Part shown: positions 9,504 to 32,028 of the stretch, piece after piece
Numbering within the stretch: position 1 is the stretch's first letter
Layout: every line of letters begins with the position of its first letter
DNA from: Bacteroidota bacterium
Lineage (GTDB): Bacteria; Bacteroidota; Bacteroidia; JACCXN01
NCBI GenBank assembly: GCA_013696965.1
Contig: JACCXN010000072.1
Location: 9,336-73,335, forward strand
Reading direction: 5' to 3'
DNA: 64,000 nt
Made by a program: the position numbers and the translations under genes
Notes under the pieces: generated by a model
The model's database searches: none
What the model was told of the DNA's origin: nothing
Seen by the model: the letters and a program-made list of their open reading frames with translations, nothing else

Positions 9504-9887
9504 AATCATCCCCATCAAGTCCTGATCCTAATTTTTAGTATTATATGTGGTTTGTGAAAAACAGAATGGCTGTTGGAGTTGATACCAAAGTCATAGGATG
9601 GGTGAGCAAAAAAGGGATGTTTTCGAAAATACAAATGAATATAACATGGCGAAACGTAAGTTCGTGAAATCAAAGATTCATGAACACCTTTAAAAATTAA
9701 AAGACAAGTGAATAATACATAAAAAAACACATGCTTTAGCATTGGCTTTGCCGAATCTTGATTTGGTAAAGCAAATCATCGATTTCATGAGTTCCTTAAA
9801 GGAATAATAAAAAAAACGAATAATTAAGGAATGAACAATTCCATTTGAATTTATTTTATCAAGAGATTTATTATAAGTAATTTTATT

Positions 9888-11006: not shown

Positions 11007-11185
11007 ACGTCCATTTATTTGCTTTTATTGAACATGTTTACGAAATTAAATAAAAAACTGGACATATAATCATAACATGTCCATTATTTGCCTTTTATTG
11101 AACATGTGTAGTTTTGTTGTACAGAAACTGGACATATAATCGTTACATGTTCATTTTATATTAAAAATTGAACATGTTTGGTTTG
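11007..11185. repeat. 2.5 copies of a 70-bp tandem repeat abutting the fic start codon
   Basis: ACTGGACATATAATC...ACATGT...TTATTGAACATGT units at 11057 and 11127 plus a partial copy at 11007; each unit carries AACATGTT-type palindromes. Confidence 0.8.
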
Positions 11186-11310
11186 AATTGATAAAAAGCG
11201 GAGCATCAATTTTTTCTTTTACAGGTTTGTAATTTCCTACCTGTAGAATGATTATCAAAACCTACTCATAGTCCTGAGCCTTTACCTGCACATGGAGAAG
11301 AGTCAATGTT

Positions 11311-11766
11311 AGTATTATTATTAATTAAAGTTTCGGAGTTGTAAATTCCTTGTTTTACTGATGTTTCAGTATGTAAAAATATTTTAGATAAAAAACTGAA
11401 ACATAGAATTAGTGCTTCCAGCACATTTATGTTCAATTGTTTGGCAAAACACACATTGTTGAAAATTAGCAATTTGCGTTGTTGTATTTTTTTAATATAC
11501 TGAAATTAAGGCAATTAAATCAGCTCCGAAACTTCAGTTATTAATTAAAGTTTCGGAGTTGTAAATTCCTTGTTTTACTGATGTTTCAGTATGTGAAAAT
11601 ATTTTAGATAAAAAACTGAAACATAGAATTAGTGCTTCCAGCACATTTATGTTCAATTGTTTGGCAAAACACAAATTGTTGAAAATTAGCAATTTGCGCT
11701 GTTGTATTTTTTTAATATACTGAAATTAAGGCAATTAAATCAACTCCGAAACTTCAGTTATTAATT
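11311..11766. repeat. two tandem 220-bp units, MITE-like with terminal inverted repeats and internal hairpins
   Basis: period exactly 220 bp (11321 to 11541), about 98% identity between copies; each unit bounded by AAGTTTCGGAGTTG / CAACTCCGAAACTT inverted repeats; internal 10-bp stem ATGTTTCAGT/ACTGAAACAT. Confidence 0.8.
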
Positions 11767-12099
11767 TCCTCATAACTAAGTTCAAATCTTCTGTTTTTCA
11801 GCATTAAATCTAATTAACCATTCGGCTATCAATACATACCTCTTCTTCTCCATAAAATTTAGCCAAAAAAACACCTTCGCAATTTGTGATATTTAGAATT
11901 CAGGTAGTAAAGTGGCTGACGGAATTGCCCAAGGTGGGGGAAACCTTCTGCAGAAGCTAAAAAATGTTTTCCTAATCCCGATTCTACCCAATACTCAAAC
12001 GGTTTTTGGTGTAGATAAACATTTCTGGAATTGCTGATTTTTCTTTAATGGATAAAAGGGTATGATTTTAGAAAAATTTAAGTAATTAATACTTAAAAA

Positions 12100-14469
12100 A
12101 TGAAAAGGCTGTATCTGTTTTTCCTTATGTTTTTAATGCAGGTAAATCTTTATGCACAGGAGATAGAGTGGGCAAAGAAGATTAGTATTCCTTTTTGGAA
12201 TCCACATGGAATGTTATATGATAATTCCGGAAATGTTTATCTCTATGGCTCATATTACAGAAACTGGAACATCAATGATCCTGGCCAGGTTATAAATGAT
12301 ACTGTAGGTTCCTTTATTCAAAAATATTCCGATGAAGGCGAATTAATATTTGAAAAAAGGTGGAAGCTTCCATTTTATATCGTTAAAATGATTTTTGATG
12401 GTGATAATGCCTTTTATTTTACTGGCTGTTTTGCAGGTTCTCTTAATCTAAATGGAGTTGCTTTTAATAGTATGGGCGAATATGATGGTATGGTAGGGAA
12501 AATGGACTTAAATGGCAATATTTATTGGGTTAGTACTTTCGGAGGAGGTAAATCTGATTTTGGAATGGGCATAAGCATGTATGCCAATAGCACAAATTTG
12601 CTGATAACAGGTTCTGTAGCTGATTCTCTTTTTGTAAACAGCCAGTATAAAGGCAGTGAACCCCTTCCAATGTTTTTAGGCATTTTTAATTTAAATGGGC
12701 ATAATATAAAAAACAAACTTGTTGATTTTATTCCTGAAAGAATCCATTCAAATAGAGGAATAGAAATAACCTGCGACAAGAATAATGAAATTTTTGTTCT
12801 TGGGGACAGAGAAGGCGCCCATTGGTATGGTGATACTATTGATGGCCCTTTAGCAGGAAGATATATCATAAAATTTAATGAAAATCTTGATACCCTATGG
12901 TCGAGGTATTTGATTGGGCCATCCTGTTATAACGGATGGAGCAATGGAAATCTTGTAGCCGACAGCAAGTGAGATATTTATACCAGAAGTTACTGCTCTT
13001 TTAAATATGGTGGAGATGGCAGTATCAGCAGGTTAAGTAATTCGAATGCAAGTACATTATGGACAGGGCAAAATAGGGATGGGGGTTATAGTGATATTTT
13101 TTTCCGTAACAATTCCATATGGTTTGTTGGTAAAGAAGGGGCAAATGGCTGCCCTTGCCCTGGCAGCAATTCTGGTTATCAGGTGATAAAGAAGATGGAT
13201 GAAAATAACCAACTTTTGGGTGAGGCAAGGATAATGGGAGTATGGCTACGGAAAATTATTCAGGATAATCAGGGAAATGTATTTGTATATGGTGCTTTTA
13301 ATGAAAGGCAAGCACATATTGGCAAAGATGTAATACTAGCTGATAGTATTTCAAGCAGTGGTACTTCTTTTTACTATTCTGGACATTTTTTAATCAAACT
13401 GAATGATAAAAACTGTACTCCTCCAAGTATTAATGATGTACCACACCATCCATTTAACAGGATTATTTGCCCAGATCAGGTCTTTCAACTTGATGCAGGC
13501 CCTGGCTTTGTGGATTATGAGTGGAGTAATGGTTCTAAAACTCAGAAAATAGAAGTTTCTGAGCTAAACAGATATACCGTAAAGGTGAAGGATAAGAATA
13601 ATTGCATTTCATACTCATCTCCAATTTCAATTTTACATAAAGAAAATAGTTCTGTACACAATTTATGCCTGATAACTTATGAAAATGATAAACAAATAAT
13701 TTATGGCACTTTGAATTTTGATTATAGTACAAAGAATTATAAAATATACAAAATAGATAAAGCAACAGGAGATACTGTAGATGTTTTGTTTGAAGATTAC
13801 AAAAATTATTTAAATGTTCAATTTGTTGATGAAAATTCTACACCTTCAACCAAAGCTTATTTATATTCCATTTCAAAGGTTGATACTTGTGGCCTTGAAT
13901 CACCAGTTAGTGTTGCCCATAAGCCAATTCTGCTAAAAATAAGAAAGGAAGGCACAAGTAATTTACTTGAGTGGGAGCCTTATGAAGGGATGGATATTCA
14001 TAGCTATCATATTTATAAAGGAACAGATAAAGGGAAGATGCGTTTGGTTGATTCTATTGGTGTTTCAGTTTTAATTTACGTTGACACAAATCTGGATAGC
14101 CTTTTTCATTATCAGGTGAAGGCCAACAAAAAATTATTTTGTTACTTGGGTAGTAGTAATTATTTTGGAACTACATCTTCAAATATTGTTGTGGATGAGG
14201 CCTATGTACCTACAATTGTTGAGGCAACTGAAATGGATATTAATGCCGATCTCTTTCCTAACCCTGCCCATGATATTTTAACCATTCAGCTTCCTGAACA
14301 AAAACAAGTAACTATAGTTCTTAAAAACCTATTAGGAGAGGTACTTTATAAAACCTCAGGCAATCAAAATAAATTTGAAATTCCAATGCAAAATTTTAAA
14401 CAGGGTTTATATGTTATTTCTATTGATTATGGAGTGGAAAGGAAGCAGTTTAAAATTATAAAACATTAA
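12100..14469 (+). pseudogene. T9SS-sorted secreted repeat/Ig-like protein interrupted by one in-frame TGA (12970-12972)
   Basis: ORFs 12100-12972 and 13183-14469 are in the same frame with no other stop between them; N-terminal signal peptide; C-terminal T9SS CTD (LFPNPAHDILTIQL...). Confidence 0.6.
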
Positions 14470-14804
14470 AAGTTTTTAGTCATAAAGGCTGTTGTAATTT
14501 AGGATGGTATAAATTATCTATTTATACTTTTGGTTTTATACTTGCAAGGAAAACTTTAAAATATATTTAAGCAGTTTTCATTCTGTATTCTACATTTTGA
14601 TACTATCAAATGCTAATGAAGCCACCTAATGAAATAACCCACCTGAACAAAAAAAATCAGTATTAAAGTAATCAGCCTTTTCATAATCTACACTTTTTAA
14701 TTTAAAATCTTAAGCATTTTCATCACTACAACTTGTCCCGTCCCGAAAGCTTTATAGGTCATCGGGATCACCATAATCCGCTAATCATCGCATCCGCTAA
14801 TTAG

Positions 14805-16877
14805 TTAATTGATAACCAGCTTCCTCCTCACCAAATCCTCCCCAACTTTCACCTGCACAAAATAAATTCCTTTAGAAAAGCCACTGGTGCTGATGTTTTC
14901 GTTGCTTTTTACCTGGCGCTGGAGCATAATTCTTCCTGAAAAATCGGTGATGGTAACATCAGCTTTCTCGGCTTCAAAAGAAAGGGTGAAATGGGAAGAG
15001 GTGGGGTTTGGGTGGAGGAGAAAATTAATTCTATTTATTGCTTCCGACTCTATACTGACATTACTACTTAATTCCATGCTGTGTATATAAACTCCTCCTC
15101 TGTTCAGCGATGCATAGAGTTTACCATCTCTTACAACTAATCGCCAAATTTTATTTCCTGCTAAATCATTTTCTAAATCAAAATCTATCCCCTCATTCAT
15201 TGGTTCCCAGGTTTTGCCAAAATCTTTGGTGAACAAAAGGTTTCCATTATAATTGACTGTAATGGCTATTAGTGAATCCTCTATAACAATATTGCTAACA
15301 AGATTTTTAAATCTCATATTTGAATTGTCTTCCCAGGCCTTGTTCCAGGTGGCCCCACCATCACGGGAGATATAGAGGCCTTGGTTAAAAGTACCTATGC
15401 ATATTATATCACCTTTTACTTTTGCTGAGTATATTTCCCATATACCCAACCAGGAAAGAATTGCAATTTTTTTAAAGGTTATACCACCATCATCTGACCT
15501 AAATAATTCCTGCCTTGTAAAGCCATAAATGAAATCATTGTCTGAATCCAATAAGCTATAATTTTCACCTCCTAAATATTTATAAGATTTTCCTTCAAGC
15601 TCATATAGCCCGTGAGTGGTGGACAGCAACAGTTTACCTTTATGCTTTAAAAAACTTTTGGCACTTATATCATTTGTACTGTCAGGAAAAATGACTTCCC
15701 ATTCATTGCCTCCTTGTTTTAAGATGCTTAATTGTAGTTTATCGTCAATAATATAAATATCCCCTTTGTAAGTTTGTGCTTGGGTAATATAACCTGGGGA
15801 AAAATAGGGAGTAGGTTTGCCTGAATCAGAAAAGGCGAATTGAGTGCTTAAGTCAGGAGATATTTTTTCCCATTTCTGTTTTTTCTCATCCAGCTTGTAT
15901 AGTTTTTGATTAATTGAAGCTAACAGGCCTGCATCAGTATTTGAAAGGCTATATACTGGAGCGCCATTTAGAAATATGCTGGCTTCTTCCCAGGTGCCAT
16001 TGTTGAATTTGTATATTCCATTAAAATTATCTGTTCCTGCAAATAAATGCCCTTTGAACTTTACAAAAGAGGTTACATTTTTTCTTTCAAGTCCGGTACC
16101 CAGGTAATTCCATGTTAAGCCATTATCAACAGAATAGTACACACCGTTGATGGTGCCAGCATAGAGGGTGTCAGTGTCCATAAAAAAAGTTCTTAGGTAT
16201 GCAGGTATAGATATGGTTTGTTCCAGCCACGTTTGCCCCAGGTTTGGAGAAATATGATAACCTAAAAAAATACTGTCCCCTTTAAATTCTAAGGCATTTG
16301 AGCTTCTTGGAGAATCAATGGTTTTCCATGATAAGCCATTGTTATAAGATATACAAGTTTTGCCTTCATTTTGCCTTTTTGTACTTGCTATTAAGGTATT
16401 ATTTCCAGCTGCAAATGAAACAAAATTCCCTCCTATGACTAATTTCCAGGTATTATCATTGAAGCCACATTTTAAAATTCCACCCTGATGGCAGAAAAAA
16501 ACAGTGTCATCAATCGCTGCAAATCTAGGTACACCATCCCAACTAGAGGAATGAAAGTAAAAGTTATCATTCTGAATCATCTCCTGCCAGGAATCTCCGT
16601 TATCAAGGGAAACATAGTATTTACCTGTGTAAATAAATAATTTTCCTCTGTAGTGAAAAATGGCCCTTGTGAATTCATAATTATTAAAATTCCATGTTTT
16701 GCTTCCATCATCAGAAAAATATAACCCTCTATCGGTGCCAGCGAAAATTCGAGTATCGGAGGCCGCAAGGCAATTAATAGTCGCACCGTAAGGCCCGTTT
16801 GTGGGCTGCCAACTTTCCTGGGCCTGTACTAAGCCCTGTAATACAACAACCATTGAAAACAAAATCAACTTTCTCAT
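14805..16877 (-). CDS. BNR/Asp-box repeat protein with T9SS C-terminal sorting domain
   Basis: signal peptide; many SxDxGxTW Asp-box repeats; C-terminal LHPNPTSSHFTLSFEAEKADVTITDFSGRIM...KLVIN block shared with the four downstream genes. Confidence 0.8.
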   Translation of the reverse strand: MRKLILFSMVVVLQGLVQAQESWQPTNGPYGATINCLAASDTRIFAGTDRGLYFSDDGSKTWNFNNYEFTRAIFHYRGKLFIYTGKYYVSLDNGDSWQEMIQNDNFYFHSSSWDGVPRFAAIDDTVFFCHQGGILKCGFNDNTWKLVIGGNFVSFAAGNNTLIASTKRQNEGKTCISYNNGLSWKTIDSPRSSNALEFKGDSIFLGYHISPNLGQTWLEQTISIPAYLRTFFMDTDTLYAGTINGVYYSVDNGLTWNYLGTGLERKNVTSFVKFKGHLFAGTDNFNGIYKFNNGTWEEASIFLNGAPVYSLSNTDAGLLASINQKLYKLDEKKQKWEKISPDLSTQFAFSDSGKPTPYFSPGYITQAQTYKGDIYIIDDKLQLSILKQGGNEWEVIFPDSTNDISAKSFLKHKGKLLLSTTHGLYELEGKSYKYLGGENYSLLDSDNDFIYGFTRQELFRSDDGGITFKKIAILSWLGIWEIYSAKVKGDIICIGTFNQGLYISRDGGATWNKAWEDNSNMRFKNLVSNIVIEDSLIAITVNYNGNLLFTKDFGKTWEPMNEGIDFDLENDLAGNKIWRLVVRDGKLYASLNRGGVYIHSMELSSNVSIESEAINRINFLLHPNPTSSHFTLSFEAEKADVTITDFSGRIMLQRQVKSNENISTSGFSKGIYFVQVKVGEDLVRRKLVIN

Positions 16878-16937
16878 TATCTTAAACTTTCAATTTTCTA
16901 AAAACCACATCCGTTAATCCGCTAATCATTTCATCCG

Positions 16938-18389
16938 CTAATTAATAACCAATTTCCTTCTTACAACTTCCTCCCCAACTTTTATCTGCACAATATATAT
17001 CCCTTTAGAAAAGCCGATGGTGCTGATGTTTTCATTGCTTTTTACCTGGCGCTGGAGCATAATTCTTCCAGAGAAATCGGTGATGGTAACATCTGCTTTT
17101 TTGGCTTCAAATGAAAGGGTGAAATGGGATGAGGTTGGGTTGGGGTTGAGGGAAAGGGAAGTCTTTGAAATATTTCTTTTTATAGCTGAATTCTGTTCTG
17201 GCAAGGTATCCGGAGGAAAATTTCGCAAAGCGTATTTTGCTAAAAATGTATAATAACTGTCTTCAGTTTTTCCAATGTTGAAAGGGCCAATACTTATCGG
17301 TTCATTGGCCGTCCCAAAAAAATATAAATTATCATTTTCATCTATGCTTACTTTTTGACCAGTCAATTTGACTGCCCAGCCTGGCACAAAGGTTTCAAGT
17401 AATTCTCCTGTTTCATCATTTAATTTCCAGGCAAATGATTTGGTTTTACCATCGCCAGATGCCACATAACCAGTTCCATAAAGATTTCCATTTTTGTCAA
17501 AAACTATGTTCGAAAATTGACTGTAAACAGCATCTATATTGGTCTTCCAGGTTTCCTTTCCATCTTTTGAGTTTTTGAATAAGGTAATGCCGGAATATCT
17601 GCTGACATTGGCTCTATAAACACTTCCGTCTTCTTTTACTTTTAGAAACCCTTGAGAACCATATGGATTCCCACCTTTATTCTGAAAATATTTTACTTCT
17701 AGGTTTGTGTCGAAAATTATTTCAAAATTATTGGTATAAAAGCCATCCCATCCGGAGCTTATACTTTCAATCAACCAAAAATCTTCCCTGTTGCCACCTA
17801 TCAGGTATATAAAACCCAGGGTGTCGGATTCAATTCTTTGGCCGAACCCTCCCTTCTTTGCCTCAAAGGCTTTTAATGCTTTGCCTACAGAATCAATTTG
17901 AATTATAAACAATCCACTATTACTAAAGGTATAGTCTCCAAAGTGGTCACCTTGGTTAGCTTTTCCCGTAATCCAATAATTTCCATAATAATCTATGTGG
18001 ATTTCGGAAAGCGATACCTGCTCATTTCCTTCCAGGTTCTGTTGCCACATTGAATTTCCGTCTTCTGAGAATCTTTCAAGTGTAAACCTTTTTTTATCCT
18101 GGCTTCCATAGGTAAGAAAAAAACCTCCCTGTTTCAATGTCTTCAAAGAAACTGTCCAATAATCATTTGAGATTTGCCTGGTCCAGAGCATTTCCCCTTC
18201 AGAAGAAAATTTTTCAAGGTTTATTTTTTCTTGTTCACTATCAAAATGAAATAAATAAATGTTTCCAAATGCATCCACATCGCAGGAAGAAGAGCGTATA
18301 AAATCGAGCTCTTTTACCCACTCCCATTCCTGGGCTTTAACCTGCACCTGAACAAAAAACATCAATATTAAAATAATCAGCCTCCTCAT
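16938..18389 (-). CDS. secreted T9SS cargo protein, paralog family member (QEWEWV N-terminus, shared CTD)
   Basis: signal peptide, conserved post-cleavage motif, divergent core, near-identical 3' 270 bp. Confidence 0.75.
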   Translation of the reverse strand: MRRLIILILMFFVQVQVKAQEWEWVKELDFIRSSSCDVDAFGNIYLFHFDSEQEKINLEKFSSEGEMLWTRQISNDYWTVSLKTLKQGGFFLTYGSQDKKRFTLERFSEDGNSMWQQNLEGNEQVSLSEIHIDYYGNYWITGKANQGDHFGDYTFSNSGLFIIQIDSVGKALKAFEAKKGGFGQRIESDTLGFIYLIGGNREDFWLIESISSGWDGFYTNNFEIIFDTNLEVKYFQNKGGNPYGSQGFLKVKEDGSVYRANVSRYSGITLFKNSKDGKETWKTNIDAVYSQFSNIVFDKNGNLYGTGYVASGDGKTKSFAWKLNDETGELLETFVPGWAVKLTGQKVSIDENDNLYFFGTANEPISIGPFNIGKTEDSYYTFLAKYALRNFPPDTLPEQNSAIKRNISKTSLSLNPNPTSSHFTLSFEAKKADVTITDFSGRIMLQRQVKSNENISTIGFSKGIYIVQIKVGEEVVRRKLVIN

Positions 18390-18509
18390 AATTTACACTT
18401 TTTAATTTAAAATCTTATGCATTTTACCATCACCAAATCACTTTCCCGATTCGTACCTCAAATGGATTTCGCTTCTCTCATAATCCGCTAATATCGCATC
18501 AGCAATTAG

Positions 18510-20051
18510 CTAATTGATAACCAGCTTCCTTCTTACCACATCCTCTCCAAGCATCACCTGCACAAAATAAATCCCTTTTGAAAAGCCGCTGGTGCTGATG
18601 TTTTCCTTGCTTTTTACCTGCCGTTGGAGCATAATTCTCCCTGAAAAATCGGTAATGGTAACATCTGCTTTTTCGGCTTCAAATGAAAGGGTGAAATGGG
18701 ATGAGGTGGGGTTTGGGTGGAGGTTGAGGGAAGAGTGAAAATTCTTGTTTTCTGAATGTACTTTTGTAAATTTTTCGATTGTGTTTATTTTGATAAGAAA
18801 GTTTATTTTAAGATTATCCCGATTGACTTCCAAATTATTACCAAAACTAATTAATGAAGAAGATACTCCTGTTATATAAAGGTTTTTGTTGTTGTCATAA
18901 CAAATTGAGTATCCTATTGATTCCCAGCTTTCAATTTCACTACTTTTCAATTTGAAAATTTTCGTACCTGTTGAATCTGTTAATTCTACACTTAATCCTG
19001 TTTTAGGATAATTTAAAAATGTACTCAATGTTGCAAAACCATAATTTATTAATTCCATCTTAATAGGATGTAGATTGTTTAAGCTAAAACCCCAACGATA
19101 ATTAAGCAGACTATCGTAGCTTTCAATTCGATCAGTACAGGGTGAATGATTGCCACAGAATGATCTATAAAAATAAAAGTTGTTAATTGAATCAATTTTA
19201 AAATCGGAAATAAATTTGCGTGAGCTCGAAATATTCTTATGATTTAAAAAATAGCCTTCTTTGGAAAATTTGAGCATATACTGGCCACTTTCATAAGCCA
19301 GTAAATTATTTGAGAAATTAGTTTCTCCATTAATGCGGGCAATTAAATAAATATCATCCTGATTATTTATTTTAATTAAATCTGGCTTGGATCCAATAGG
19401 ATTAATTAAAGAAGGTGAGTCTTTAAGAAATATTTCTTTTGCCCATAGAGATACACCGTAAGTATCATATTTGGCATAAAAGATATTATCTTCTTCAGCT
19501 TCTGAAAAAAACATTTGATTATTAATTGACCCGCCCTTACTAAAGCTTCCTGTAATCACAATTTCACTATTCTTTATATCCATGGTTTTGAAAACTTCCT
19601 TCTTAGTCCCTCCATCCCTTTTTACCATCTTCAAATCCCTCTCCATATCAAAAGAAGCCAGAAAAATATCCCAACCACCGACAGAAGTTTCATCTCCTAA
19701 ACTTGATTTCAAAGTCCCTGTAAAATTCCCCCCAATATAAGCCACCCCTGCTTTGGCTTTAAGCTCAACCATTACAAGGGTATCAGTACTTCCAATGGTT
19801 TTCCACCAAAGGATATTCCCATCTTCATCATACCTTAAAACAAAACAAGCTGATTTTTCAGGTGAGGCAATTGTAACTTCTCCTAATTTGCAAGAGCCTT
19901 TGAAATTTCCTGAAGCAAAAAGATTTCCTTCTTCGTCCGCGGCTGTTTGGAGGTTTTCAATGCCTTCGCCTTCTATAACCCATTCCCAATCCTGGGCTTT
20001 AGACTGCACCTGAACAAAAAACATCAATATTAATATAATCAGCCTTTTCAT
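18510..20051 (-). CDS. secreted T9SS cargo protein, paralog family member (mosaic; 5' 450 bp about 95% identical to the 21819-23375 gene)
   Basis: N-terminal 145 aa nearly identical to the gene at 21819-23375, then divergent, then the shared CTD. Confidence 0.75.
   Translation of the reverse strand: MKRLIILILMFFVQVQSKAQDWEWVIEGEGIENLQTAADEEGNLFASGNFKGSCKLGEVTIASPEKSACFVLRYDEDGNILWWKTIGSTDTLVMVELKAKAGVAYIGGNFTGTLKSSLGDETSVGGWDIFLASFDMERDLKMVKRDGGTKKEVFKTMDIKNSEIVITGSFSKGGSINNQMFFSEAEEDNIFYAKYDTYGVSLWAKEIFLKDSPSLINPIGSKPDLIKINNQDDIYLIARINGETNFSNNLLAYESGQYMLKFSKEGYFLNHKNISSSRKFISDFKIDSINNFYFYRSFCGNHSPCTDRIESYDSLLNYRWGFSLNNLHPIKMELINYGFATLSTFLNYPKTGLSVELTDSTGTKIFKLKSSEIESWESIGYSICYDNNKNLYITGVSSSLISFGNNLEVNRDNLKINFLIKINTIEKFTKVHSENKNFHSSLNLHPNPTSSHFTLSFEAEKADVTITDFSGRIMLQRQVKSKENISTSGFSKGIYFVQVMLGEDVVRRKLVIN
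19610..20051. repeat. about 450-bp direct repeat (5' coding block), copy 1
   Basis: near-identical to 22919-23375 at nucleotide level, inferred from near-identical sense and antisense translations. Confidence 0.7.
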
Positions 20052-20203
20052 AATTATAAATTTTTATTCTCAATTCACTCAACATCAGCTAATCCGATTC
20101 CCTATTCCTACCTCACCGGGATTTCGCTCTCTCATAATCCGCTAATCATCGCATCAGCTTCCCGATTCGAACCTCATCGGGATTTCGCTTCGCTCAAAAT
20201 CCG

Positions 20204-21796
20204 CTAATTGATAACCAGCTTCCTCCTCACCACTTCCTCCCCAACCTTCACCTGCACAAAATAAATCCCTTTAGAAAACCCGCTGGTGCTGATGTTTTCG
20301 TTGCTTTTTACCTGCCGCTGGAGCATAATTCTTCCTGAAAAATCGGTGATGGTAACATCTGCTTTTTCGGCTTCGAAGGAAAGGGTGAAATGGGATGAGG
20401 TTGGGTTGGGGTTGAGAGTGAGGGGGATTATCTTTGTTTCAGATATTATTGGAGTTGTTTCACCTTTATATGGTGTTGTAAGTTTTGCGAAAAATAATCT
20501 CTGAAGGGTATCTGAGGTATTTAATTTAAAACTACCTAGGACTAAATTTCTATTCCCCTCGGTGCAATAGTAGTCAGTTCTGTTGTAATTTCCAATTACA
20601 TAAGAATTTCCCTTTCTATCGCTGATAATATCAGTTATTTTATTGCATCCATCACCTTCAGAAGTAATTGCCCATTGAAATTTATTATCTTTAGATATGC
20701 CTGCCAATAACAATCTTTCCATTGTATCTGGAACAATGTAATGACTGTCAAAATAAACAGTATCAAAATTCATATAAACATTTTTTTTTATGGCTCCTGA
20801 TATTATTATATCTTCTTCATTTTGTGCAGTGATAAAATTCGTGTAATAACCATTATAATATTTACCTACATCTTTTCTAAGGTTGCTTGTTCCGTTAGAA
20901 AGTTGGTCATAAATTGATCGGTCGCCATAATTATATCTGGTTTTCATATTAAGGGAAGTAATTTTAGAATTATATGATATAAAATCTACAGATGCCCATG
21001 TAAAGGAAAATTGTATTATTTGAATTTCTTCTCCGCTAGGTTTAATCTTAAAAATTATATTCTTACCACAATACGCATAACAACCAGGTTCAAGTGTGGA
21101 AAGTGTGGAATATGAAGAGAGGAAGATATAATTATCAGGGCCAACCTTAATTTTAGCTCCATTGTGATTATTAATACTATCGTTTAAATGCCAAATAAAT
21201 TCTCCGTTTTTATCAAGTTTAATTAAATAAGCCCAACTTTTCTTATCGTTATTAATGGTATTATTTTCAATCAAATAATCGCCAAAAATCTGGCCTCCGA
21301 AATAAATGTTTCCTTTTATATCAACTCCGACAGAACTAGCTATTTCTTTATTTTCATCATTTCCTATAGGTTTTGCCCATATACAATCCCCTTCTGGATT
21401 AAATTTTGCTAAAAATGCATCAGAGCTCCCAAGGCTTAAAATTGATATTGAATTAAAGCTCAGTTGCACAGTGAATAGACCCACTAAATAAAAGTTGCTG
21501 TTATTATCTGTAGTAATGTCTTCAATTATTCCTGAATAATTCTTACCCCAAATGAAATTTCCATCTATGTCGTATTTTAAAATGAAATAGCCAGTGTCAA
21601 GAGTAGTATTAATTATTTTGCTTTTGCCATCCTGGTAAGCCAAGACGTAAATATGTTGTTGATTAAAGCAAATTTTCCTGGCATCCTGTCGGCCTTCTAC
21701 AACATCGAATCCTTTCACCCACTCCCAGTCCTGGGCCTTTACCGCTCCCATAAGTAGGGTAATCATCAGAAATAACAAAAACTTTTTCATAACCAA
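20204..21796 (-). CDS. secreted T9SS cargo protein, paralog family member
   Basis: signal peptide, AQDWEWVKG motif, shared CTD. Confidence 0.75.
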   Translation of the reverse strand: MVMKKFLLFLMITLLMGAVKAQDWEWVKGFDVVEGRQDARKICFNQQHIYVLAYQDGKSKIINTTLDTGYFILKYDIDGNFIWGKNYSGIIEDITTDNNSNFYLVGLFTVQLSFNSISILSLGSSDAFLAKFNPEGDCIWAKPIGNDENKEIASSVGVDIKGNIYFGGQIFGDYLIENNTINNDKKSWAYLIKLDKNGEFIWHLNDSINNHNGAKIKVGPDNYIFLSSYSTLSTLEPGCYAYCGKNIIFKIKPSGEEIQIIQFSFTWASVDFISYNSKITSLNMKTRYNYGDRSIYDQLSNGTSNLRKDVGKYYNGYYTNFITAQNEEDIIISGAIKKNVYMNFDTVYFDSHYIVPDTMERLLLAGISKDNKFQWAITSEGDGCNKITDIISDRKGNSYVIGNYNRTDYYCTEGNRNLVLGSFKLNTSDTLQRLFFAKLTTPYKGETTPIISETKIIPLTLNPNPTSSHFTLSFEAEKADVTITDFSGRIMLQRQVKSNENISTSGFSKGIYFVQVKVGEEVVRRKLVIN

Positions 21797-21818
21797 CTTT
21801 TAACTTTTAACTTTTAAT

Positions 21819-23375
21819 TTAATTTACCACCAGTTTCCTCCTTACCAATTCCTCCCCAACCTTCACCTGAACAAAATAAATTCCCTTTGAAAATCCTTGG
21901 GTGCTGATGTTTTCGTTGCTTTTTACCTGCCGCTGGAGCATAATTCTTCCAGAGAAATCGGTAATGGTAACATCTGCTTTTTCGGCTTCAAAGGAAAGGG
22001 TGAAATGGGATGAGGTTGGGTTTGGGTGGAGGGATTCGGATAATTGACGACTTATTGCATCGAAGCCAGTCTGGGTTTCAAAAGAATGATTCTTAGCAAT
22101 TTTAGCAATATATTGAACTTGTTTTCTATTTTCATTTATTATTTGGGCTCCAAAAGATATTTTATCAGCTAAGGCTCCTGAAATAATAACAAAATCTGAT
22201 GAAACTGAAAATATATTGTGCGGGGATATAGAATAAAATGTCCCTGCTGATTCTACTTTTCCAAGATTGAAATTTATTAATTTTCCTTCTGTATTAAATT
22301 CTTGAATTAAAAGTCCATTCTTATTTTCATTGTTATAATTGTTAACCGAAGTAAAAATTAGAATTTTATCTTCCTTTACTTCTAATGATAAAGGATAAGC
22401 GGGCTCTGCGTTTATTGAATAGATCCAATTTGCATTCCCAGAACTATCAGAGTATTTCGAAAGCGAAGTTATGATATATCTGATACTGCTCCGAAAAAAA
22501 CGATAAAAAAAACCATCTGAATCAATATGTATTGATTTAGTAGAATGGCCGGGATTGCTTATGCAATATAAATATTCAAGAAAATCACCTTGAGGAGAAA
22601 ATTTTAATAATTTGTCACAAGAATTAAAGGTTGTATCAACTTCACCAATCCTAATATTTTGTATCCCACAACTAATATATATATTTCCCTTTGAGTCCGT
22701 TACTGCCATACGAGCAAAACTATACGAATCCTCTCCACCTAAAAATTCTTTTATCCACTCATAGTTACCTAGCGTGTCCATTTTTAAATAATATGAATTA
22801 TTTCTTGTAGACTGTGATGTGAAGTTTATGTTCCCAATTTTTCCTCCAACTGAAAAGCTGCCAATAACAATTAAATCTTCTCCCGTAAAAGCCAAGGAAA
22901 CCAGTTCCTCCCTCTCAGGCCCACCATCCCTCTTCACCATCTTCAAATCCCCCTCCTTATCAAAAGAAGCCAGAAAAATATCCATTCCACCTGCAGATGG
23001 GGAAATACCTAAACTAGATTTCAAAGTCCCTTTGAAATTTCCTCCAATATAAGCCACACCTGCTTTGGCTTTAAGCTCAACCATTGCAAGGGTATCAGTA
23101 CTGCCAATGGTTTTCCACCAAAGGATATTCCCCGCTTCATCATACCTTAAAACAAAACAAGCTGATTTTTCAGGTGAGGTAATTGTAACTTCTCCAAGTT
23201 TGCAGGAGCTCTTAAAATTTCCGGAAGCAAAAAGGTTTCCCTCTTCATCAGCGGCTGTTTGGAGGTTTTCAATGCCTTCGCCTTCTATAACCCATTCCCA
23301 ATCCTGGGCTTTAGACTGCACCTGGAACAGGATAATCATTAAAACTATAAATAACATTCTCATAAATACATACAC
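21819..23375 (-). CDS. secreted T9SS cargo protein, paralog family member (mosaic partner of the 18510-20051 gene)
   Basis: see the 18510-20051 gene; shared CTD. Confidence 0.75.
   Translation of the reverse strand: MYVFMRMLFIVLMIILFQVQSKAQDWEWVIEGEGIENLQTAADEEGNLFASGNFKSSCKLGEVTITSPEKSACFVLRYDEAGNILWWKTIGSTDTLAMVELKAKAGVAYIGGNFKGTLKSSLGISPSAGGMDIFLASFDKEGDLKMVKRDGGPEREELVSLAFTGEDLIVIGSFSVGGKIGNINFTSQSTRNNSYYLKMDTLGNYEWIKEFLGGEDSYSFARMAVTDSKGNIYISCGIQNIRIGEVDTTFNSCDKLLKFSPQGDFLEYLYCISNPGHSTKSIHIDSDGFFYRFFRSSIRYIITSLSKYSDSSGNANWIYSINAEPAYPLSLEVKEDKILIFTSVNNYNNENKNGLLIQEFNTEGKLINFNLGKVESAGTFYSISPHNIFSVSSDFVIISGALADKISFGAQIINENRKQVQYIAKIAKNHSFETQTGFDAISRQLSESLHPNPTSSHFTLSFEAEKADVTITDFSGRIMLQRQVKSNENISTQGFSKGIYFVQVKVGEELVRRKLVVN
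22919..23375. repeat. about 450-bp direct repeat (5' coding block), copy 2
   Basis: near-identical to 19610-20051. Confidence 0.7.
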
Positions 23376-23574
23376 TTTTTACTTGTGCATCTATTGGATA
23401 GTGTAATAAAACTTTGCCGTTATTTCAGGAAAAAGTAAATGCTTGTGTCTCTGTTTTTCAGAAAGTTGGGCAGATGTGCCTCTTGCACAGGATGGGGAAT
23501 TTTTTTCCTTTGGATTAACTAGTGAGTAGGGGAATCAAAATTGCAAATACAAATCGCAAGTTCTTGACAATCAA

Positions 23575-24963
23575 CTATTTTCCTATGCAGAAATTCCTGA
23601 AAATATTCTCCAATAAATCATCAGTGGTAATACTTCCCGTAATTTCTCCTAAATGAAACAATGATTTTCGGATATCAATAGCGAGGAAATCACTGCTAAT
23701 TCCTGAAACAAGGCCCGTATTTACACTATCAATAGCTTCGGATGCTTTTTTTAATGCCTCATAATGGCGCACATTGCTTACTATTGTTTGTCCGCTTTGG
23801 AGTAGTCCTGTGTTGATAAAGGAAGATAGTTTTTGGGTAAGTTCTTCCAGGTTTTCTTTCTGTTTTGCGGAAATGAAAATAACATTTTCCAATTCACTGA
23901 ACTTTAGTTTTAGTTCATCCAGGTTGATTTTGTCAGCTTTGTTGGCAAGCAAGATTAAATGTACCGGCAGTTTTTTTATTTTTTCCTGTAATAAGGCTGT
24001 ATTTTTCTGAATTGTCTGAGGACTATCATTATAGGCATCAAACATATACAATAATACCCGTGCCTTTTCAATTGCATCATAAGTCCTGGAAATACCCAGA
24101 GCCTCTATTGTGTTTTGGGTTTCCCTGATTCCTGCCGTATCAATAAAACGAAATACAACCCCATCAATATTAATTTCATCTTCAATGGTATCTCTGGTTG
24201 TGCCAGCTATTTCCGAAACTATTGCCCGCTCTTCGTTGAGCAGTGCATTTAAAAGAGTGGATTTACCAACATTAGGTTCTCCTGCAATAGCAACTGGAAT
24301 ACCAGTTTTAATTACATTGCCAACAGAAAAAGAATTAATTAAACGTGAAAGTACTTTTTGAATATGCTTTAAGAGATCCTGTAAATCCTTGCGATTGGCA
24401 AACTCAACATCCTCTTCAGAAAAATCAAGTTCCAGTTCTATCAGGGAAGCAAAGTTTATGAGTTTCTCCCTCAAGTCATTAAGTTCTTTTGCAAAACCAC
24501 CCCTCATTTGGTGCATAGCAATTTGATGTGAGGCTTCTGAATCAGAAGCAATCAGATCTGCAACAGCTTCAGCCTGTGAAAGATCTATCTTCTTATTTAA
24601 ATAAGCCCTTAAAGTAAATTCGCCGGGTTTTGCAGCTCTTGCACCTGTCTTAATCAACAATTGTAGAATCTGTTGCTGAATATAAACAGAACCATGACAG
24701 GAGATTTCAATGGTATTTTCTCCTGTAAATGAATTTGGACCCTTAAAAACTGAAATTAAAACTTCATCAATTATTTTATTATCCTCCTTAATAAAACCAA
24801 AGTGCAGGGTATGGGATTTGACTTCTGAGAGTTTCTTTCGAGATTTAGAATCGAAAATTTTTTCGGTAATAAAAATAGCCTGAGGGCCAGAAATGCGAAT
24901 AACAGCAATTGCACCCATTCCAGGCGAAGTTGCAATAGCACAAATAGAATCTATATTTATCAA
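23575..24963 (-). CDS. mnmE: tRNA modification GTPase MnmE
   Basis: G-domain motifs (GEPNVGKS, DTAG, NKAD) and the invariant C-terminal CIGK tetrapeptide. Confidence 0.9.
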   Translation of the reverse strand: MINIDSICAIATSPGMGAIAVIRISGPQAIFITEKIFDSKSRKKLSEVKSHTLHFGFIKEDNKIIDEVLISVFKGPNSFTGENTIEISCHGSVYIQQQILQLLIKTGARAAKPGEFTLRAYLNKKIDLSQAEAVADLIASDSEASHQIAMHQMRGGFAKELNDLREKLINFASLIELELDFSEEDVEFANRKDLQDLLKHIQKVLSRLINSFSVGNVIKTGIPVAIAGEPNVGKSTLLNALLNEERAIVSEIAGTTRDTIEDEINIDGVVFRFIDTAGIRETQNTIEALGISRTYDAIEKARVLLYMFDAYNDSPQTIQKNTALLQEKIKKLPVHLILLANKADKINLDELKLKFSELENVIFISAKQKENLEELTQKLSSFINTGLLQSGQTIVSNVRHYEALKKASEAIDSVNTGLVSGISSDFLAIDIRKSLFHLGEITGSITTDDLLENIFRNFCIGK

Positions 24964-25129
24964 TGATTTGTTTTTTATAGTAATTACCGATATTTATTAA
25001 CGTTAAAAAGTGCCAAAAATATAAGGTTTTGCAAAAATATCATTTTACTTTGTTCCTTTTTACGAGAATAAACTTTATTTTAGCGCTCTGAATAAGGGTA
25101 TTTTCAATAAAACTAACCAAAAATAAACA

Positions 25130-26047
25130 ATGAGTGTTTTAATAAACAAGAATTCCAAAGTAATTGTGCAAGGGTTTACAGGCAGCGAAGGAACCTTTCA
25201 TGCCGGTCAAATGATTGAATACGGGACCAATGTTGTAGGAGGAGTAACTCCTGGTAAAGGGGGACAATCACATTTAGATCGTCCAGTATTTAACACAGTT
25301 GAAGAGGCTGTAAAAAAAACAGGAGCAGATGTTTCCATCATTTTTGTTCCACCTCCATTTGCAGCTGATGCTATAATGGAAGCTGCAGAGGCTGGTATTA
25401 AAGTTATAATATGTATTACTGAAGGAATTCCAACAAAAGACATGATTGATGTTAAAGAATATCTATCAGATAAGGATTGCAGGTTAATAGGACCAAATTG
25501 TCCTGGAGTGATTACAGCAGGGGAAGCTAAAGTTGGTATTATGCCTGGTTTTGTTTTTAAATCGGGTAGAATTGGGATTGTTTCCAAATCAGGGACTTTA
25601 ACATATGAAGCAGCAGATCAGGTTGTGAAAGCAGGCTTGGGGATATCAACAGCAATTGGAATAGGAGGGGATCCAATAATTGGAACTCCAACAAAGGATG
25701 CAGTAAAACTTTTAATGGAAGATCCTGAAACAGATGGTATTGTAATGATAGGTGAGATAGGTGGAGGAATGGAAGCTGAGGCCGCTTATTGGATAAAGGA
25801 ATTTGGAACTAAGCCAGTTGTGGGATTCATAGCCGGTCAAACCGCCCCTCCAGGAAGAAGAATGGGCCATGCTGGGGCAATTGTAGGTGGAGCGGATGAT
25901 ACTGCTGCTGCCAAAATGAAAATTATGAGTGAATGTGGGATTATAGTTGTAGATTCTCCTGCAATTATTGGAAAAGCAATAGCTGATGCAGTTGCCAAGG
26001 AATCCAGAACAGAAAATCCTCATCATTATGCAAACCGAGTAGATTAA
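25130..26047 (+). CDS. sucD: succinyl-CoA synthetase alpha subunit
   Basis: CoA-binding N-terminus ([15 protein letters not shown]), catalytic His region (RMGHAGAI); full-length SucD similarity. Confidence 0.9.
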
Positions 26048-26119
26048 TTATTCCCGTTGATACCATTTAAAGTCTAATTTTTGTACTTATTGGACTAAAG
26101 TAAATACGATTAAACTGGC

Positions 26120-26154
26120 TGGAAGCCACTCCATTTATGGGGTGGCTTTTTTTA
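26120..26154 (+). terminator. rho-independent terminator after sucD
   Basis: GC-rich hairpin AGCCACTCC-loop-GGGGTGGCT followed by T7. Confidence 0.6.
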
Positions 26155-26258
26155 TTGGCTTATATTAAACTATTTGGCAAGGTTTTGAATTGGTTTAAGC
26201 AAGAGAATGAATGATTTGGAGGATTAAAAGAGTAAAAACAACTTAAATATTAATAATT

Positions 26259-26756
26259 ATGGAAACTAAAAAAATCAGCCGGAGAATATTTTCCTTTTTA
26301 GGGATTTTAGGAATCGCGGCAATGGTATATTCCTGTGAACCAAGTAAACGAGCAGCAGATACAACAGCTTCAGTGCCAATTACAGAATCGGTAACCCCTG
26401 GAAATGAAGGTGCAGCGGCATTGGATTCAAGGATTCAGAACCTTAACCAAAATTTTACAAATGTTGAAAAGGAAGTGATGTCATCCGACAAAGTATCTGA
26501 AGAAGGCTTTAGGGAGGAATGGAGAAAAGTTGAGGTTAAAAGACATGAACTAAACCGAAGTATTGAACTCTATAATCAGGCAATTGAAAAAGATGCTTCA
26601 CTTGAAGCCGCTGAATTAAGGACTGATATAAACAGAATGATAACTGAACTGGAAAGGGATTTGATATCTGTAAGAGATGGTGATGGAATGCAGCAAGAAC
26701 CAACGCAAGAGCCTCAATTTGAGCAAGAACAGGAAATTGAACAATATCCAGAATAG
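26259..26756 (+). CDS. hypothetical lipoprotein with coiled-coil and acidic tail
   Basis: signal peptide with lipobox (VYSC); Glu-rich C-terminus. Confidence 0.5.
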   Translation: METKKISRRIFSFLGILGIAAMVYSCEPSKRAADTTASVPITESVTPGNEGAAALDSRIQNLNQNFTNVEKEVMSSDKVSEEGFREEWRKVEVKRHELNRSIELYNQAIEKDASLEAAELRTDINRMITELERDLISVRDGDGMQQEPTQEPQFEQEQEIEQYPE

Positions 26757-26972
26757 AATTATTTTGGCTTCAAAAACCTATTTATTCAATGGGCTGACTT
26801 TAATTAGTCAGTCCATTTTTTTATTAATATACCCATTAATTAATAATAAAGTTTCTCGAATTGTGGAAGATTCTCTTCAAATTTAATTTTTTACTCTTAA
26901 CATTCCAAGAAATATTCAACTCATAAGTGGAGGAGCCAATGCGGCAAGATTTTTTAATTAAGTTAAAATGAC

Positions 26973-28466
26973 TTGAAAAAAAATAGCAAAATGGACTCAA
27001 AATATACAATTTCCTGTTTCACGAACTTCAAAAACATTATGTTCTTTTTGGTAATGTTGTTAGTTCCATTAATTTCTTATGGCCAAATAACTTTTCAAAA
27101 AATATTTGGAGGAACTCGTTCTGAATCCTCTTATAAAGTGGAAATATGTTCAGATGGAGGCTATATAACTGCTGGATATACCGTATCCTCTGGACCAGGA
27201 GATGCGAGTATGCAATTAATTAAAACAGACTTGTATGGTAAACAAATTTGGGAGGCAGTAATTGGTGGAAAATATACAGATTATGCATTTGCAGTAACCA
27301 CAACAACAGATGGAAATTATGTAGCTGTGGGCTCTACAACAAGCTTTGGTTCTGGTCAACAAGATATTTATGCAGTTAAAATTGATAATAATGGAAACAA
27401 ATTGTGGGAAAAAACATATGGAGGATTACAAAAAGAAGAAGGTTGGGACATAAGACAGACCAACGATGGCGGATTCATTATTACGGGAATGACCAATAGT
27501 TTTGGGGCAACTTTCTTCGATGCTTTTCTTTTAAAAATAGATACTAATGGAAATGAAGAATGGAAAAAGCTATATGGAGGTCCTTCTTATGATTCAGGAT
27601 TATGCGTAAGACAAACTCTGGATGGCGGTTATGCTTTCCTTGGCCAAACACATAGCTTTGGAGAAGGTTCAGGAGATTTTTATTTAGTGAAGACTGATTC
27701 AAATGGAAATAAAGAATGGTCAAAAACTTATGGAGGGACATTAACAGAAGAGGGTAGATATTTTTCACTTACTGATGATGGAGGATTCATTTTAATTGGA
27801 AAAACAGAAAGTTTTGGAGCAGGAGATGAGGATATTTATGTTGTAAAAACAGATGATAAAGGGATTCTTGAATGGTACAAAACATTTGGTGGTGATAAAA
27901 AAGATACTGGAAAATCCATTGAACCAACTAATGATGGGGGTTATATAATTGCTTCTTCCTCCCGTAGTTTTAATTGGGCAAACCCAAATGCTTGGTTTAT
28001 TAAAATAGATAAACAAGGTGAACAGGTATGGGCTAAAGAATATGGAGGTTATGATCATGATCACGGACATCATATTCTTCCAACTTCCGATGGGGGTTAC
28101 ATTGCCACTGGACATGTTAATAAGAATATAGCACAAATGGAAGATTCCTATTTGCTTAAACTAGATTCACTGGGCGAATGGAGTGATAACACTGGAATCA
28201 GAGAAGAGTCATTAGCAAATACAATTCAAATATATCCTAACCCAAGTTCTGGAATTGTGGAACTTTCACTTAAGATGAACACGCATGGCTCTTTAGAAAT
28301 CAATATTTTAAGTTACATGGGAAAGGTAATTTATAAAAATATTTATCATCCTGAAAACCTTTCATTTTCAATAAAGATAGATATGCAAAGTTTTCCAAAA
28401 GGTATTTATTTGCTCCGTGTTTCCGATGGCCTTGATCAAACTACCACAAAAGTAATATTGGATTAA
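26973..28466 (+). CDS. seven-repeat beta-propeller-like T9SS cargo protein
   Basis: signal peptide; seven tandem repeats of about 52 aa (YGG..D.G..V.QT.DGGYII.G.T.SFG.G..D.Y.VKTD.NGN..W); C-terminal T9SS CTD (IYPNPSSGIVEL...). Confidence 0.75.
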   Translation: MKKNSKMDSKYTISCFTNFKNIMFFLVMLLVPLISYGQITFQKIFGGTRSESSYKVEICSDGGYITAGYTVSSGPGDASMQLIKTDLYGKQIWEAVIGGKYTDYAFAVTTTTDGNYVAVGSTTSFGSGQQDIYAVKIDNNGNKLWEKTYGGLQKEEGWDIRQTNDGGFIITGMTNSFGATFFDAFLLKIDTNGNEEWKKLYGGPSYDSGLCVRQTLDGGYAFLGQTHSFGEGSGDFYLVKTDSNGNKEWSKTYGGTLTEEGRYFSLTDDGGFILIGKTESFGAGDEDIYVVKTDDKGILEWYKTFGGDKKDTGKSIEPTNDGGYIIASSSRSFNWANPNAWFIKIDKQGEQVWAKEYGGYDHDHGHHILPTSDGGYIATGHVNKNIAQMEDSYLLKLDSLGEWSDNTGIREESLANTIQIYPNPSSGIVELSLKMNTHGSLEINILSYMGKVIYKNIYHPENLSFSIKIDMQSFPKGIYLLRVSDGLDQTTTKVILD

Positions 28467-28497
28467 AATATTAAAAAGAGAATTAAATATTCGATTT

Positions 28498-30510: not shown

Positions 30511-30667
30511 TTTTTTCTTCACCTAAATTATCAAAAAAAGGGATTTTGAAGTTTAAAAATTCAATAGAAGTAAAAGTAATCATTTGTGTAGTTTGCGTTT
30601 TCGTTTGTGTAGTAATTTGTGAAGTCCCTACCACACAACCCTAAAACATACACAACCTAACACGCTG

Positions 30668-30713
30668 AAAAACACTCAGAAACAAAAAAAGGAGCGCATT
30701 TCTGCGACTCCTT
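30668..30713 (-). terminator. terminator hairpin downstream of tRNA-Asp
   Basis: on the minus strand AGGAGTCGCAGAAATGCGCTCCT followed by T7. Confidence 0.55.
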
Positions 30714-30716
30714 TTG

Positions 30717-30790
30717 CGGTCCGGACGGGACTCGAACCCGCGACCTCCTGCGTGACAGGCAGGCATTCTAACCAGCTGAACTACCGGACC
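30717..30790 (-). tRNA. tRNA-Asp (anticodon GTC)
   Basis: reverse complement folds as a cloverleaf: acceptor GGTCCGG/CCGGACC, D-arm AGTTCAGCTGGTTAGAAT, anticodon loop CTGTCAC, T-arm GGTTCGAGTCC; CCA not encoded. Confidence 0.9.
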
Positions 30791-30959
30791 GTTTTTACTA
30801 TTTTTAAGAGTTTAAAACTCATTATTTTTAAGAACAATTTTCCCTTAATTGGTTTTAGAGAGCGGCAAAAGTAGTTTATTTTTTTTAATACCACAAAGAA
30901 AAAGAAAAATAATTAAAAATATTTTTTTAAACTTTTTCTTTTGCCAAAATCCTTCTAAA

Positions 30960-31886: not shown

Positions 31887-32028
31887 TTTAAGTCAATCAA
31901 TTTTGTTAATTCGCCAATTGTAATTTTCCTTTTAAAATCACAATTATTTTAAGTCTTAATAATAAACTTACAACAATTCAATTTAGTATTAATTATCGAA
32001 TTGGCGAATTATCAAATTGATTTAAAGT

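Follow-up and report, generated by a model that had tools for sequence, protein, structure and literature searches.

SBBP-repeat proteins that end in a type-A C-terminal domain (CTD) of the type IX secretion system (T9SS) form a large Bacteroidota family whose function is unknown, and T9SS cargo repertoires as a whole are large and poorly understood. The closest described mosaics include the bab paralogues of Helicobacter pylori (babA, babB and babC), which have nearly identical ends and a divergent middle and undergo intragenomic conversion (PMC4552749); their concerted evolution was reported by Pride & Blaser 2002, as cited in PMC4552749. The T9SS cargo genes rgpA, kgp and hagA of Porphyromonas gingivalis are subject to domain rearrangement and allelic exchange (PMC5266723). 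Here we describe a tandem array of five genes for predicted T9SS cargo proteins, g1 to g5, in 64,000 nt of DNA (hereafter the window) from the Bacteroidota bacterium assembly GCA_013696965.1 (contig JACCXN010000072.1, positions 9,336-73,335 of the forward strand). This metagenome-assembled genome (MAG) belongs to a Bacteroidia bacterium that is uncultured and AT-rich, with 35% GC.

An earlier note on this DNA, made from the letters alone, had described five consecutive minus-strand open reading frames (ORFs) for secreted proteins of 483-690 aa, and all five were recovered, with lengths of 690, 483, 513, 530 and 518 aa:

14805..16877, minus strand: g1, a 690-aa predicted T9SS cargo protein with a signal peptide, a BNR/Sortilin-Vps10 propeller body and the array-type CTD
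16938..18389, minus strand: g2, a 483-aa SBBP-type beta-propeller, predicted T9SS cargo
18510..20051, minus strand: g3, a 513-aa SBBP-type beta-propeller, predicted T9SS cargo
20204..21796, minus strand: g4, a 530-aa SBBP-type predicted T9SS cargo protein; the ORF opens with TTG at 21796 and the likely ATG start is at 21790
21819..23375, minus strand: g5, a 518-aa ORF for an SBBP-type predicted T9SS cargo protein; the database version has 514 aa from the ATG at 23363

Our comparisons indicate that in this five-gene array a recombined junction module probably surrounds much older and different gene bodies. The earlier note had reported separately shared 5' and 3' ends, the latter as a near-identical 90-aa CTD whose 270 nt were about 90% identical in the five genes. 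Both homologies are real and five CTD copies are present, but the two ends form one contiguous block, which extends from the CTD past the stop codon and across a non-coding spacer into the start of the next gene, and the CTD part is shorter than was described, with 213 nt including the stop codon (70 aa). The CTD blocks are 87-93% identical at the DNA level in all ten pairs. The 57 nt directly upstream of them are 18-44% identical, which is chance level, so the boundary of the block is sharp; its 5' edge falls exactly on the first CTD residue. The parts of the module and the related shared segments are as follows:

14805..15017, minus strand: CTD-coding block of g1, 213 nt, a copy of the five-copy direct repeat
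16938-17150, 18510-18722, 20204-20416 and 21819-22031, minus strand: CTD blocks of g2, g3, g4 and g5, homologous to the g1 block
14685..14804, minus strand: spacer downstream of g1, the non-coding part of the junction module
18390-18509, 20052-20203, 16878-16937 (shortened) and 21797-21818 (22 nt), minus strand: homologous spacers of the module
14613..14684, minus strand: relic gene start, with an ATG at 14684 and signal-peptide codons (MKRLITLILIFFVQV...) and a stop after 23 codons
19597..20056, minus strand: shared 5' block of g3, with its partner in g5 at 22909-23368, covering the signal peptide and the first two propeller repeats

Across the gene boundaries, 14635-15018 matches 18338-18723 (85% over 391 nt) and 18310-18730 matches 19972-20424, with about 80 nt of the next gene, from the signal peptide to QDWEWV, belonging to the module. 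The spacers of different junctions are 81-91% identical at aligned positions (z up to 16 versus shuffles). They are also homologous to the spacers of two loci from other samples, L006 in the sister MAG GCA_013820985.1 and L050. The homology of the relic to the starts of g2 and g3 ends at 14640, and its part 14640-14687 is 91.7% identical to 20007-20054; a sixth paralogue, once located downstream of g1, has therefore been lost. The 5' sequence of about 450 nt that the earlier note saw shared by g3 and g5 was also found, with 87.5% identity over 456 nt (87.4% when measured over 461 nt). On our reading of the sequence and the repeat consensus it ends at ...KRDGG, the second propeller-repeat boundary, and it contains a 74-nt perfect run (p ~0.001-0.006).

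A motif of about 45 nt (…GCGAAATCCCGxTGAGGT.CGAATCGGGAA…) recurs in the spacers at 18429-18473, 20084-20128 and 20145-20189, hence twice after g4, and in L006 at 3915-3970; 'GATTAGCGGATTA' repeats nearby. RNA folding of the five spacers was no better than that of shuffles (z -0.8 to +0.7), and the Rfam scan returned one tRNA at 30717-30790 only and no match in the array itself. The idea of a structured RNA element or terminator in the spacer was therefore dropped.

The module is much younger than the bodies that it joins. In a codon-identity test, which is independent of alignment quality, we counted how often aligned identical amino acids also had the same codon, and set the count against the number expected by chance under the codon usage of the window. 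In the cores, identical codons were at chance, with 39 of 79 for g3/g5 (35.7 expected), 37 of 85 for g2/g3 (37.8 expected) and 38 of 79 for g2/g4 (38.1 expected), and the remaining core pairs were likewise at chance. In the CTD, all pairs had 45-52 of 60-65 identical (about 27 expected), and in the g3/g5 5' block the count was 89 of 108 (47 expected). In 30-codon windows, the proportion of synonymous differences (pS) was 0.15-0.55 in the shared blocks versus about 0.55-0.95 in the cores; for the CTD block within the array it was 0.26-0.39, with a proportion of nonsynonymous differences (pN) of 0.02-0.06. The CTD protein sequence is under purifying selection, with a ratio of nonsynonymous to synonymous rates (dN/dS) of about 0.1, and more distant family members reach a pS of 0.5-0.77, so the sites are free to change. 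Since synonymous sites are saturated in the cores and not in the module, recombination, and not protein-level selection alone, appears to have given old cores young ends. The codon test and the conserved non-coding spacers together show that the common ancestor of the module is much more recent than that of the gene bodies. The earlier note had named, as the finding that would speak for selection alone, ends no more conserved than the cores at synonymous sites; the comparison gave the opposite, with the cores at chance and the ends far above it. Its view that the mosaic needs recombination is thus backed by the codon test and the spacer homology, and also by the unrelated BNR gene with the same CTD and by the differences between loci presented below.

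Every one of the five genes is intact and has a start codon, a signal peptide and a CTD of its own. The profiles PF18962 (44.6-51.1 bits, cut-off 27) and TIGR04183 (48.7-59 bits, cut-off 23) match all five proteins to the last residue. The signal peptides, read by eye, combine a basic n-region with a hydrophobic core and a ...(K/V)AQ site, and in the AlphaFold model of g3 residues 2-15 form a helix ahead of the first strand. The earlier note had placed a (Q/E)(D/E)WEW(V/A) motif after the signal peptide in each protein; the signal peptides are present throughout, but the motif is confined to g2-g5 and g1 reads AQESWQP instead. The cores, which it called unrelated, with BNR repeats in the first, differ in fold only for g1. 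This protein indeed has a BNR/Sortilin-Vps10 body (PF15902, 61.8 bits, cut-off 33; BNR, 47.3 bits, cut-off 27; PF18962, 46.4 bits), and its closest homologues overall, which carry the same BNR/Sortilin domains, are merely 22-25% identical. The other four are diverged homologues in one SBBP-type beta-propeller family: g2 can be aligned with g4 from end to end (28% identity), and g3 and g5 are 51% identical overall. Their database homologues are mostly SBBP-repeat proteins with a CTD, dozens of them with PF06739 and PF18962, and a 36-member family alignment has a repeat of about 50 aa with the consensus D..GN.Y..G.F ... D.F..K.D..GN..WAK..GG. The SBBP profile itself (PF06739, cut-off 20.5 bits) scored 17.9 bits in g2 and 19.3 bits in g4 and did not match g3 or g5. 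The AlphaFold model of g3 (predicted local distance difference test score 88) shows an all-beta propeller followed by a CTD sandwich; among PDB structures the CylK propeller matches it best (E 1e-13).

A word-indexed protein search with the CTD alone returned two fragments only, and an exhaustive HMMER search of the 70-aa CTD against 1.84 billion representative proteins was used in its place, which found 16 proteins at E<=1e-10. Matches of at least 75% identity were g1, g2, g3, g5, four SBBP-family proteins (P0003, P0006, P0007 and P0010) and three short fragments; apart from g1 they belong to a small clade. Among these representatives, g1 is the only carrier of the variant with a non-SBBP body, so it captured its CTD locally. 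The g1 tail, its spacer and the relic are a copy of the junction between the g3 tail and the g2 head, which suggests that the BNR body was linked to an array module by recombination within the locus. In a scan of genome contigs with the CTD peptide, the CTDs among the matches listed were at most 41% identical over the whole domain and followed generic T9SS patterns. Two metagenome DNA-pattern scans with conserved CTD stretches gave no match in a collection that evidently is without these samples. The SBBP paralogue P0005 belongs to the same MAG but lies on a different contig, and its CTD is only 53% (aa) and 65% (nt) identical.

Comparative analyses of the same locus, performed on short and fragmentary MAG or metagenome contigs, showed that its structure differs between genomes. 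In L006 the order is P0007, P0006, spacer and Fic, and the Fic region is 92-93% identical to that of the window (pS 0.20). At least two genes occupy this Fic-linked site, with cores at most 44% aa identical to any window gene (non-orthologous) and junctions that are 80-93% identical. Relative to L006, the window has an extra segment, 11179-14804, which contains a 220-nt tandem duplication, the flanking cargo gene fA/fB with an in-frame stop (described below) and the relic. L006 is without a stretch of the 11318-11766 type, and the spacer of its last array gene leads straight into the Fic upstream region. In the metagenome locus L051 (JGI 3300078329, Ga0643547_0310698), positions 1-1099 hold a collapsed array at the same site, with an unrelated ORF end, about 44 last core residues of a g4 orthologue (P0240), a CTD, a spacer, a relic 'KSQDWEWV' start and a Fic upstream region that is 83% identical to window 11117-11192. 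Those last residues of the P0240 core are about 69% (aa) and 80% (nt) identical to g4 by our count, and no other paralogue resembles the stretch. L050 carries another tandem pair beside a paralogue of the fA/fB family; it and L006, from independent samples, have the same tandem architecture and the same module. The earlier note regarded the repeats as substrates for deletion and rearrangement and proposed that the locus be compared across related genomes, where an identical structure would have spoken against it. The different array in L006, the collapsed version in L051 and the relic starts agree with that proposal, and with such variation between genomes the direct repeats therefore mark a recombinationally unstable locus.

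Two observations concern the Fic side of the locus in the sister MAG. The Fic orthologue at 3972-5265 of L006 is 93% identical (nt) over the last 294 codons, and its N-terminal part is interrupted by stops or frameshifts. Synteny stops right after Fic, where a PorV gene adjoins the syntenic locus in L006 and a Pyr_redox_2 gene follows in the window.

The claim of the earlier note that the exchange is ongoing was not upheld. The array CTDs differ by 7-13% and are no closer to each other than to the copy of the sister MAG, with identities of 87-93% within the array versus 89-93% to P0007, and a pS of 0.26-0.39 within the array versus 0.24-0.42 between array copies and P0007, with a Fic benchmark of 0.20. 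Long identical tracts were not clearly present in the CTD pairs, where the longest runs were 20-51 nt (p 0.05-1.0, lowest uncorrected p 0.048 among 10 pairs), and the sole sign of later exchange is the 74-nt run in the g3/g5 5' block. In a neighbour-joining tree of the CTDs, the five array copies alone formed a clade with 0% bootstrap, the copies of the window MAG and the sister MAG together formed one clade with 78%, and P0010 and P0240, from other metagenomes, formed a second group with 66%. The g4 CTD shares 90-93% identity with the CTDs of its paralogues and 87% with the CTD of its orthologue P0240, with which it never clusters (0%), so the CTDs appear to group by lineage and not by core, as is the signature of concerted evolution. 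The spread of the module would predate the split of the two sister MAGs and seems not to have been renewed since.

The composition of the module was also distinct. GC content at third codon positions (GC3) is 0.46-0.59 in the shared CTD versus 0.24-0.31 in the cores, and is 0.20-0.27 in CTDs of other types in the same genome (the fB part of the flanking gene, the gene at 26973, the same-genome fA/fB paralogue L4a, and P0005, for which it is 0.24). High CTD GC3 was observed in every genome with this CTD variant, and could come from past GC-biased conversion or from a foreign origin of the module. Changes from the CTD consensus comprise 33 GC>AT and 15 AT>GC. This present drift argues against an active conversion bias; either a bias was at work earlier, or the block has an outside origin.

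We propose that recombination between array members, by gene conversion or unequal exchange with the module as the homology, would have spread the module over the array and onto g1, and that the same recombination would have deleted at least one member and left the relic start. These events would have taken place in the common ancestor of the window species and the sister species. Since then the copies would have diverged independently, with their GC-rich third positions decaying towards AT. Each protein is predicted to cross the inner membrane by Sec, after which the common CTD may send all five propeller 'heads', different as they are, along a single T9SS route of export and processing.

Several points weigh against this reconstruction. 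The species-divergence benchmark is one gene, Fic. The lineage clade has a bootstrap of just 78% on 210 sites, and the orthology of g4 with the L051 gene is drawn from about 44 residues only. The informative sites of the CTD are star-like, and 81 of 136 site pairs are incompatible without spatial clustering, a pattern that cannot tell many short conversion events from homoplasy. A test modelled on the pairwise homoplasy index was not significant on the CTD alignment (p 0.74), and the four-gamete incompatibilities are therefore not assignable to recombination over homoplasy. Orthologues of g1-g5 could sit off-contig in the fragmentary comparison genomes, the high GC3 of the CTD is left unexplained, and a second assembly of the locus breaks at the g5/g4 junction.

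One alternative is exchange between genomes, in which the junction modules would serve as homology arms for horizontal replacement or addition of cores among related Bacteroidia, the ends would be a cross-species pool, and old core 'alleles' would be kept by diversifying or frequency-dependent selection. We regard it as unlikely, although the sister MAG has wholly different cores between modules of the same type at the same Fic-linked site, next to a Fic gene that is 93% identical, and in the tree the CTDs from both genomes are mixed with one another. The breakpoints of the shared 5' blocks vary from pair to pair and GC3 is raised in the shared block only, which would also fit such exchange. 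No donor or recently transferred core was identified, however, and spread before the species split followed by differential loss explains the intermixing equally well. The GC>AT direction of current substitutions indicates that biased conversion is inactive, no mobile-element genes were found among the genes neighbouring the array, and there was no plasmid match. Going further, the junction of CTD, spacer and signal peptide might be a portable cassette boundary, such that homologous recombination could capture, swap or delete any T9SS body between two modules; g1 would then be a captured foreign body, and the sister cores would be swaps, possibly across species. This is a speculative extension that we think quite improbable. 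If it were true, such arrays would let environmental Bacteroidia diversify their secreted or surface propellers by recombination, and the GC-rich CTD block would be the recombination hotspot.

The array is not an active switching system; it results from recombination that took place among its gene copies in the past, an event of a known kind. The earlier note had likened the locus to variable surface-protein families, and the likeness is one of architecture only. Active antigenic or phase variation, with frequent present-day conversion or switching among the five genes, would be in line with the shared ends and variable middle that recall H. pylori bab (PMC4552749) and the shuffling of P. gingivalis T9SS cargo (PMC5266723), with the 74-nt run, and with the break of one assembly at the g5/g4 junction. 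Yet we consider it very unlikely: the CTDs differ by at least 7%, those of one genome are no more alike than those of different species, and the 74-nt segment is nearly unchanged also in the distant homologue P0003. Silent or promoterless cassettes were not found, since all five ORFs are complete with their own start codons and signal peptides and the sole truncated copy is the 23-codon relic. No inverted repeats flanking a promoter were present, only four weak inverted pairs (72-88% complementary), all within coding sequence, in a scan that did not cover simple-sequence repeats, and a strict two-box Bacteroidetes promoter pattern had no match in the array. Selection alone would mean that the ends have the age of the cores and stay similar through constraint, be it on the protein sequence of the CTD and signal peptide or on the nucleotide sequence itself; this is largely refuted and similarly improbable. 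The CTD protein is strongly conserved across several metagenomes, and its unusual GC3 could reflect codon selection. But synonymous codon identity is far above chance in the ends only, the non-coding spacer is conserved to the same degree, distant members reach the high pS given above, the g1 body is unrelated, and in the g4/L051 pair core and CTD diverge similarly (about 80% versus 87% nt, by our count). An assembly artefact, in which paralogues of different places or strains were joined at repeats, is extremely unlikely. The source is a MAG, and the second assembly, GCA_035696205.1, matches the window at 100% over 8510-21736 and 21717-33363 and is broken between them, within the shared 5' block of g4. 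The first of these matches nevertheless takes in g1-g4 and all their junctions, every junction copy has private differences, and L006 and L050 independently show the same tandem architecture and module.

At the break itself (21717-21736), contigs DASRQY010000062.1 and DASRQY010000036.1 of the second assembly overlap by 20 nt only, and the break is repeat-induced, or possibly due to strain heterogeneity at the g5/g4 junction. The neighbours of the array are an ordinary chromosome, with genes for MnmE, SucD, DnaE, GyrA and ClpB and a Fic gene, and no T9SS machinery components were found within the window. The T9SS cargo gene that flanks the array is:

12100-14469, plus strand: fA/fB, about 790 codons, convergent with the array, with an in-frame stop at 12970-12972 and a CTD unrelated to the array CTD

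As the earlier note had observed, this gene has a related N-terminal motif (AQEIEWAKK) and a CTD of its own; the in-frame stop is added here. A tblastn search with the same-genome paralogue L4a gave a single frame-1 alignment spanning 12100-14463, and the one in-frame stop of fA/fB therefore reflects recent pseudogene formation, a sequencing error or translational read-through. The gene at 26973-28466 carries a CTD of yet another type, again as had been noted. Paralogues of fA/fB, with the N-terminus AQ.(I/V)EW(A/V)K, occur in the loci L003 (7370-9715), L004 (7404-9722) and L050 (2-721), one of which belongs to the same genome as the window. Each adjoins an SBBP/QDWEW gene in divergent orientation, so the two families appear to move together.

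Other repeats were observed in the window. The tandem duplication at 11318-11766 is a non-coding, AT-rich 220-nt unit in 2.04 head-to-tail copies (98% identical) between the Fic upstream region and fA/fB. Just upstream of Fic lies a weak direct repeat with overlapping copies at 11009-11114 and 11079-11184 (about 106 nt, 75%). A 201-nt intergenic fragment at 37846-38046 is 94.5% identical to 34687-34887, an internal part of the DNA polymerase III alpha gene dnaE (ORF 32470-35952) about 3 kb away; it encodes the same ...PDIDTD segment as dnaE and looks like a gene-fragment duplication.

The locus shows at nucleotide resolution that local recombination can move a secretion tag between unrelated cargo genes, together with the downstream spacer and the next signal peptide, and that such arrays are remodelled between closely related species. 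This suggests a concrete route by which new proteins may become T9SS substrates, and is a warning to annotators and assemblers, as such repeats break MAG assemblies. It introduces no new principle, as concerted evolution of the termini of surface-protein paralogues is already well documented. The earlier observation was largely correct and its interpretation half right: recombination built the mosaic and remodelled the locus, but it is historical and not demonstrably ongoing.

Among the known systems that the array resembles are SBBP proteins with a type-A CTD (PF06739 and PF18962), with which g2-g5 share the repeat of about 50 aa and the predicted propeller. They differ in that none of the four reaches the Pfam SBBP threshold and two have no hit, and within the wider family they are a narrow subclade defined by the QDWEW N-terminus and the GC-rich CTD variant. 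The features of T9SS type-A cargo, TIGR04183/PF18962 at the extreme C-terminus and a Sec-type signal peptide, were both found in g1-g5, which would make all five secreted proteins, as far as their sequences tell. In systems of the pilE/pilS, vlsE and msp2 type, one expression site is fed by silent cassettes and recent conversion leaves long identical tracts; the array has five complete ORFs instead, and its CTD pairs are without such tracts, the exception being the 74-nt g3/g5 run in the 5' block. With P. gingivalis it has in common T9SS CTD cargo genes of Bacteroidota, a conserved CTD and modular mosaics made by recombination. There, adhesin domains are shuffled, between strains of a cultured and naturally competent pathogen, whereas the unit shared here is the CTD/spacer/signal-peptide junction of SBBP propeller genes from an environmental lineage that is uncultured, and all the evidence comes from comparison. 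The bab genes are alike in that within-genome recombination through shared ends makes chimeras, and in the roles of the parts, with export or anchoring for the shared C-terminal part and, presumably, binding for the middle. As in bab, the termini of the array have a more recent origin than the middles, judged by synonymous and non-coding sites. The paralogue termini are closer to each other than to orthologues of another lineage when L051 is compared (90-93% versus 87%, clade 78%) and not when the sister MAG is (87-93% versus 89-93%). The bab genes occupy dispersed loci, with frequent within-host conversion and phase variation by CT repeats. Here the genes are in tandem, the last detectable spread predates a species split, no phase-variation element was found in a scan that left out simple-sequence repeats, and the shared unit crosses the intergenic spacer. 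The present analysis adds to the earlier note that the ends are a single junction module; the past recombination behind the mosaic is of a well-known kind.

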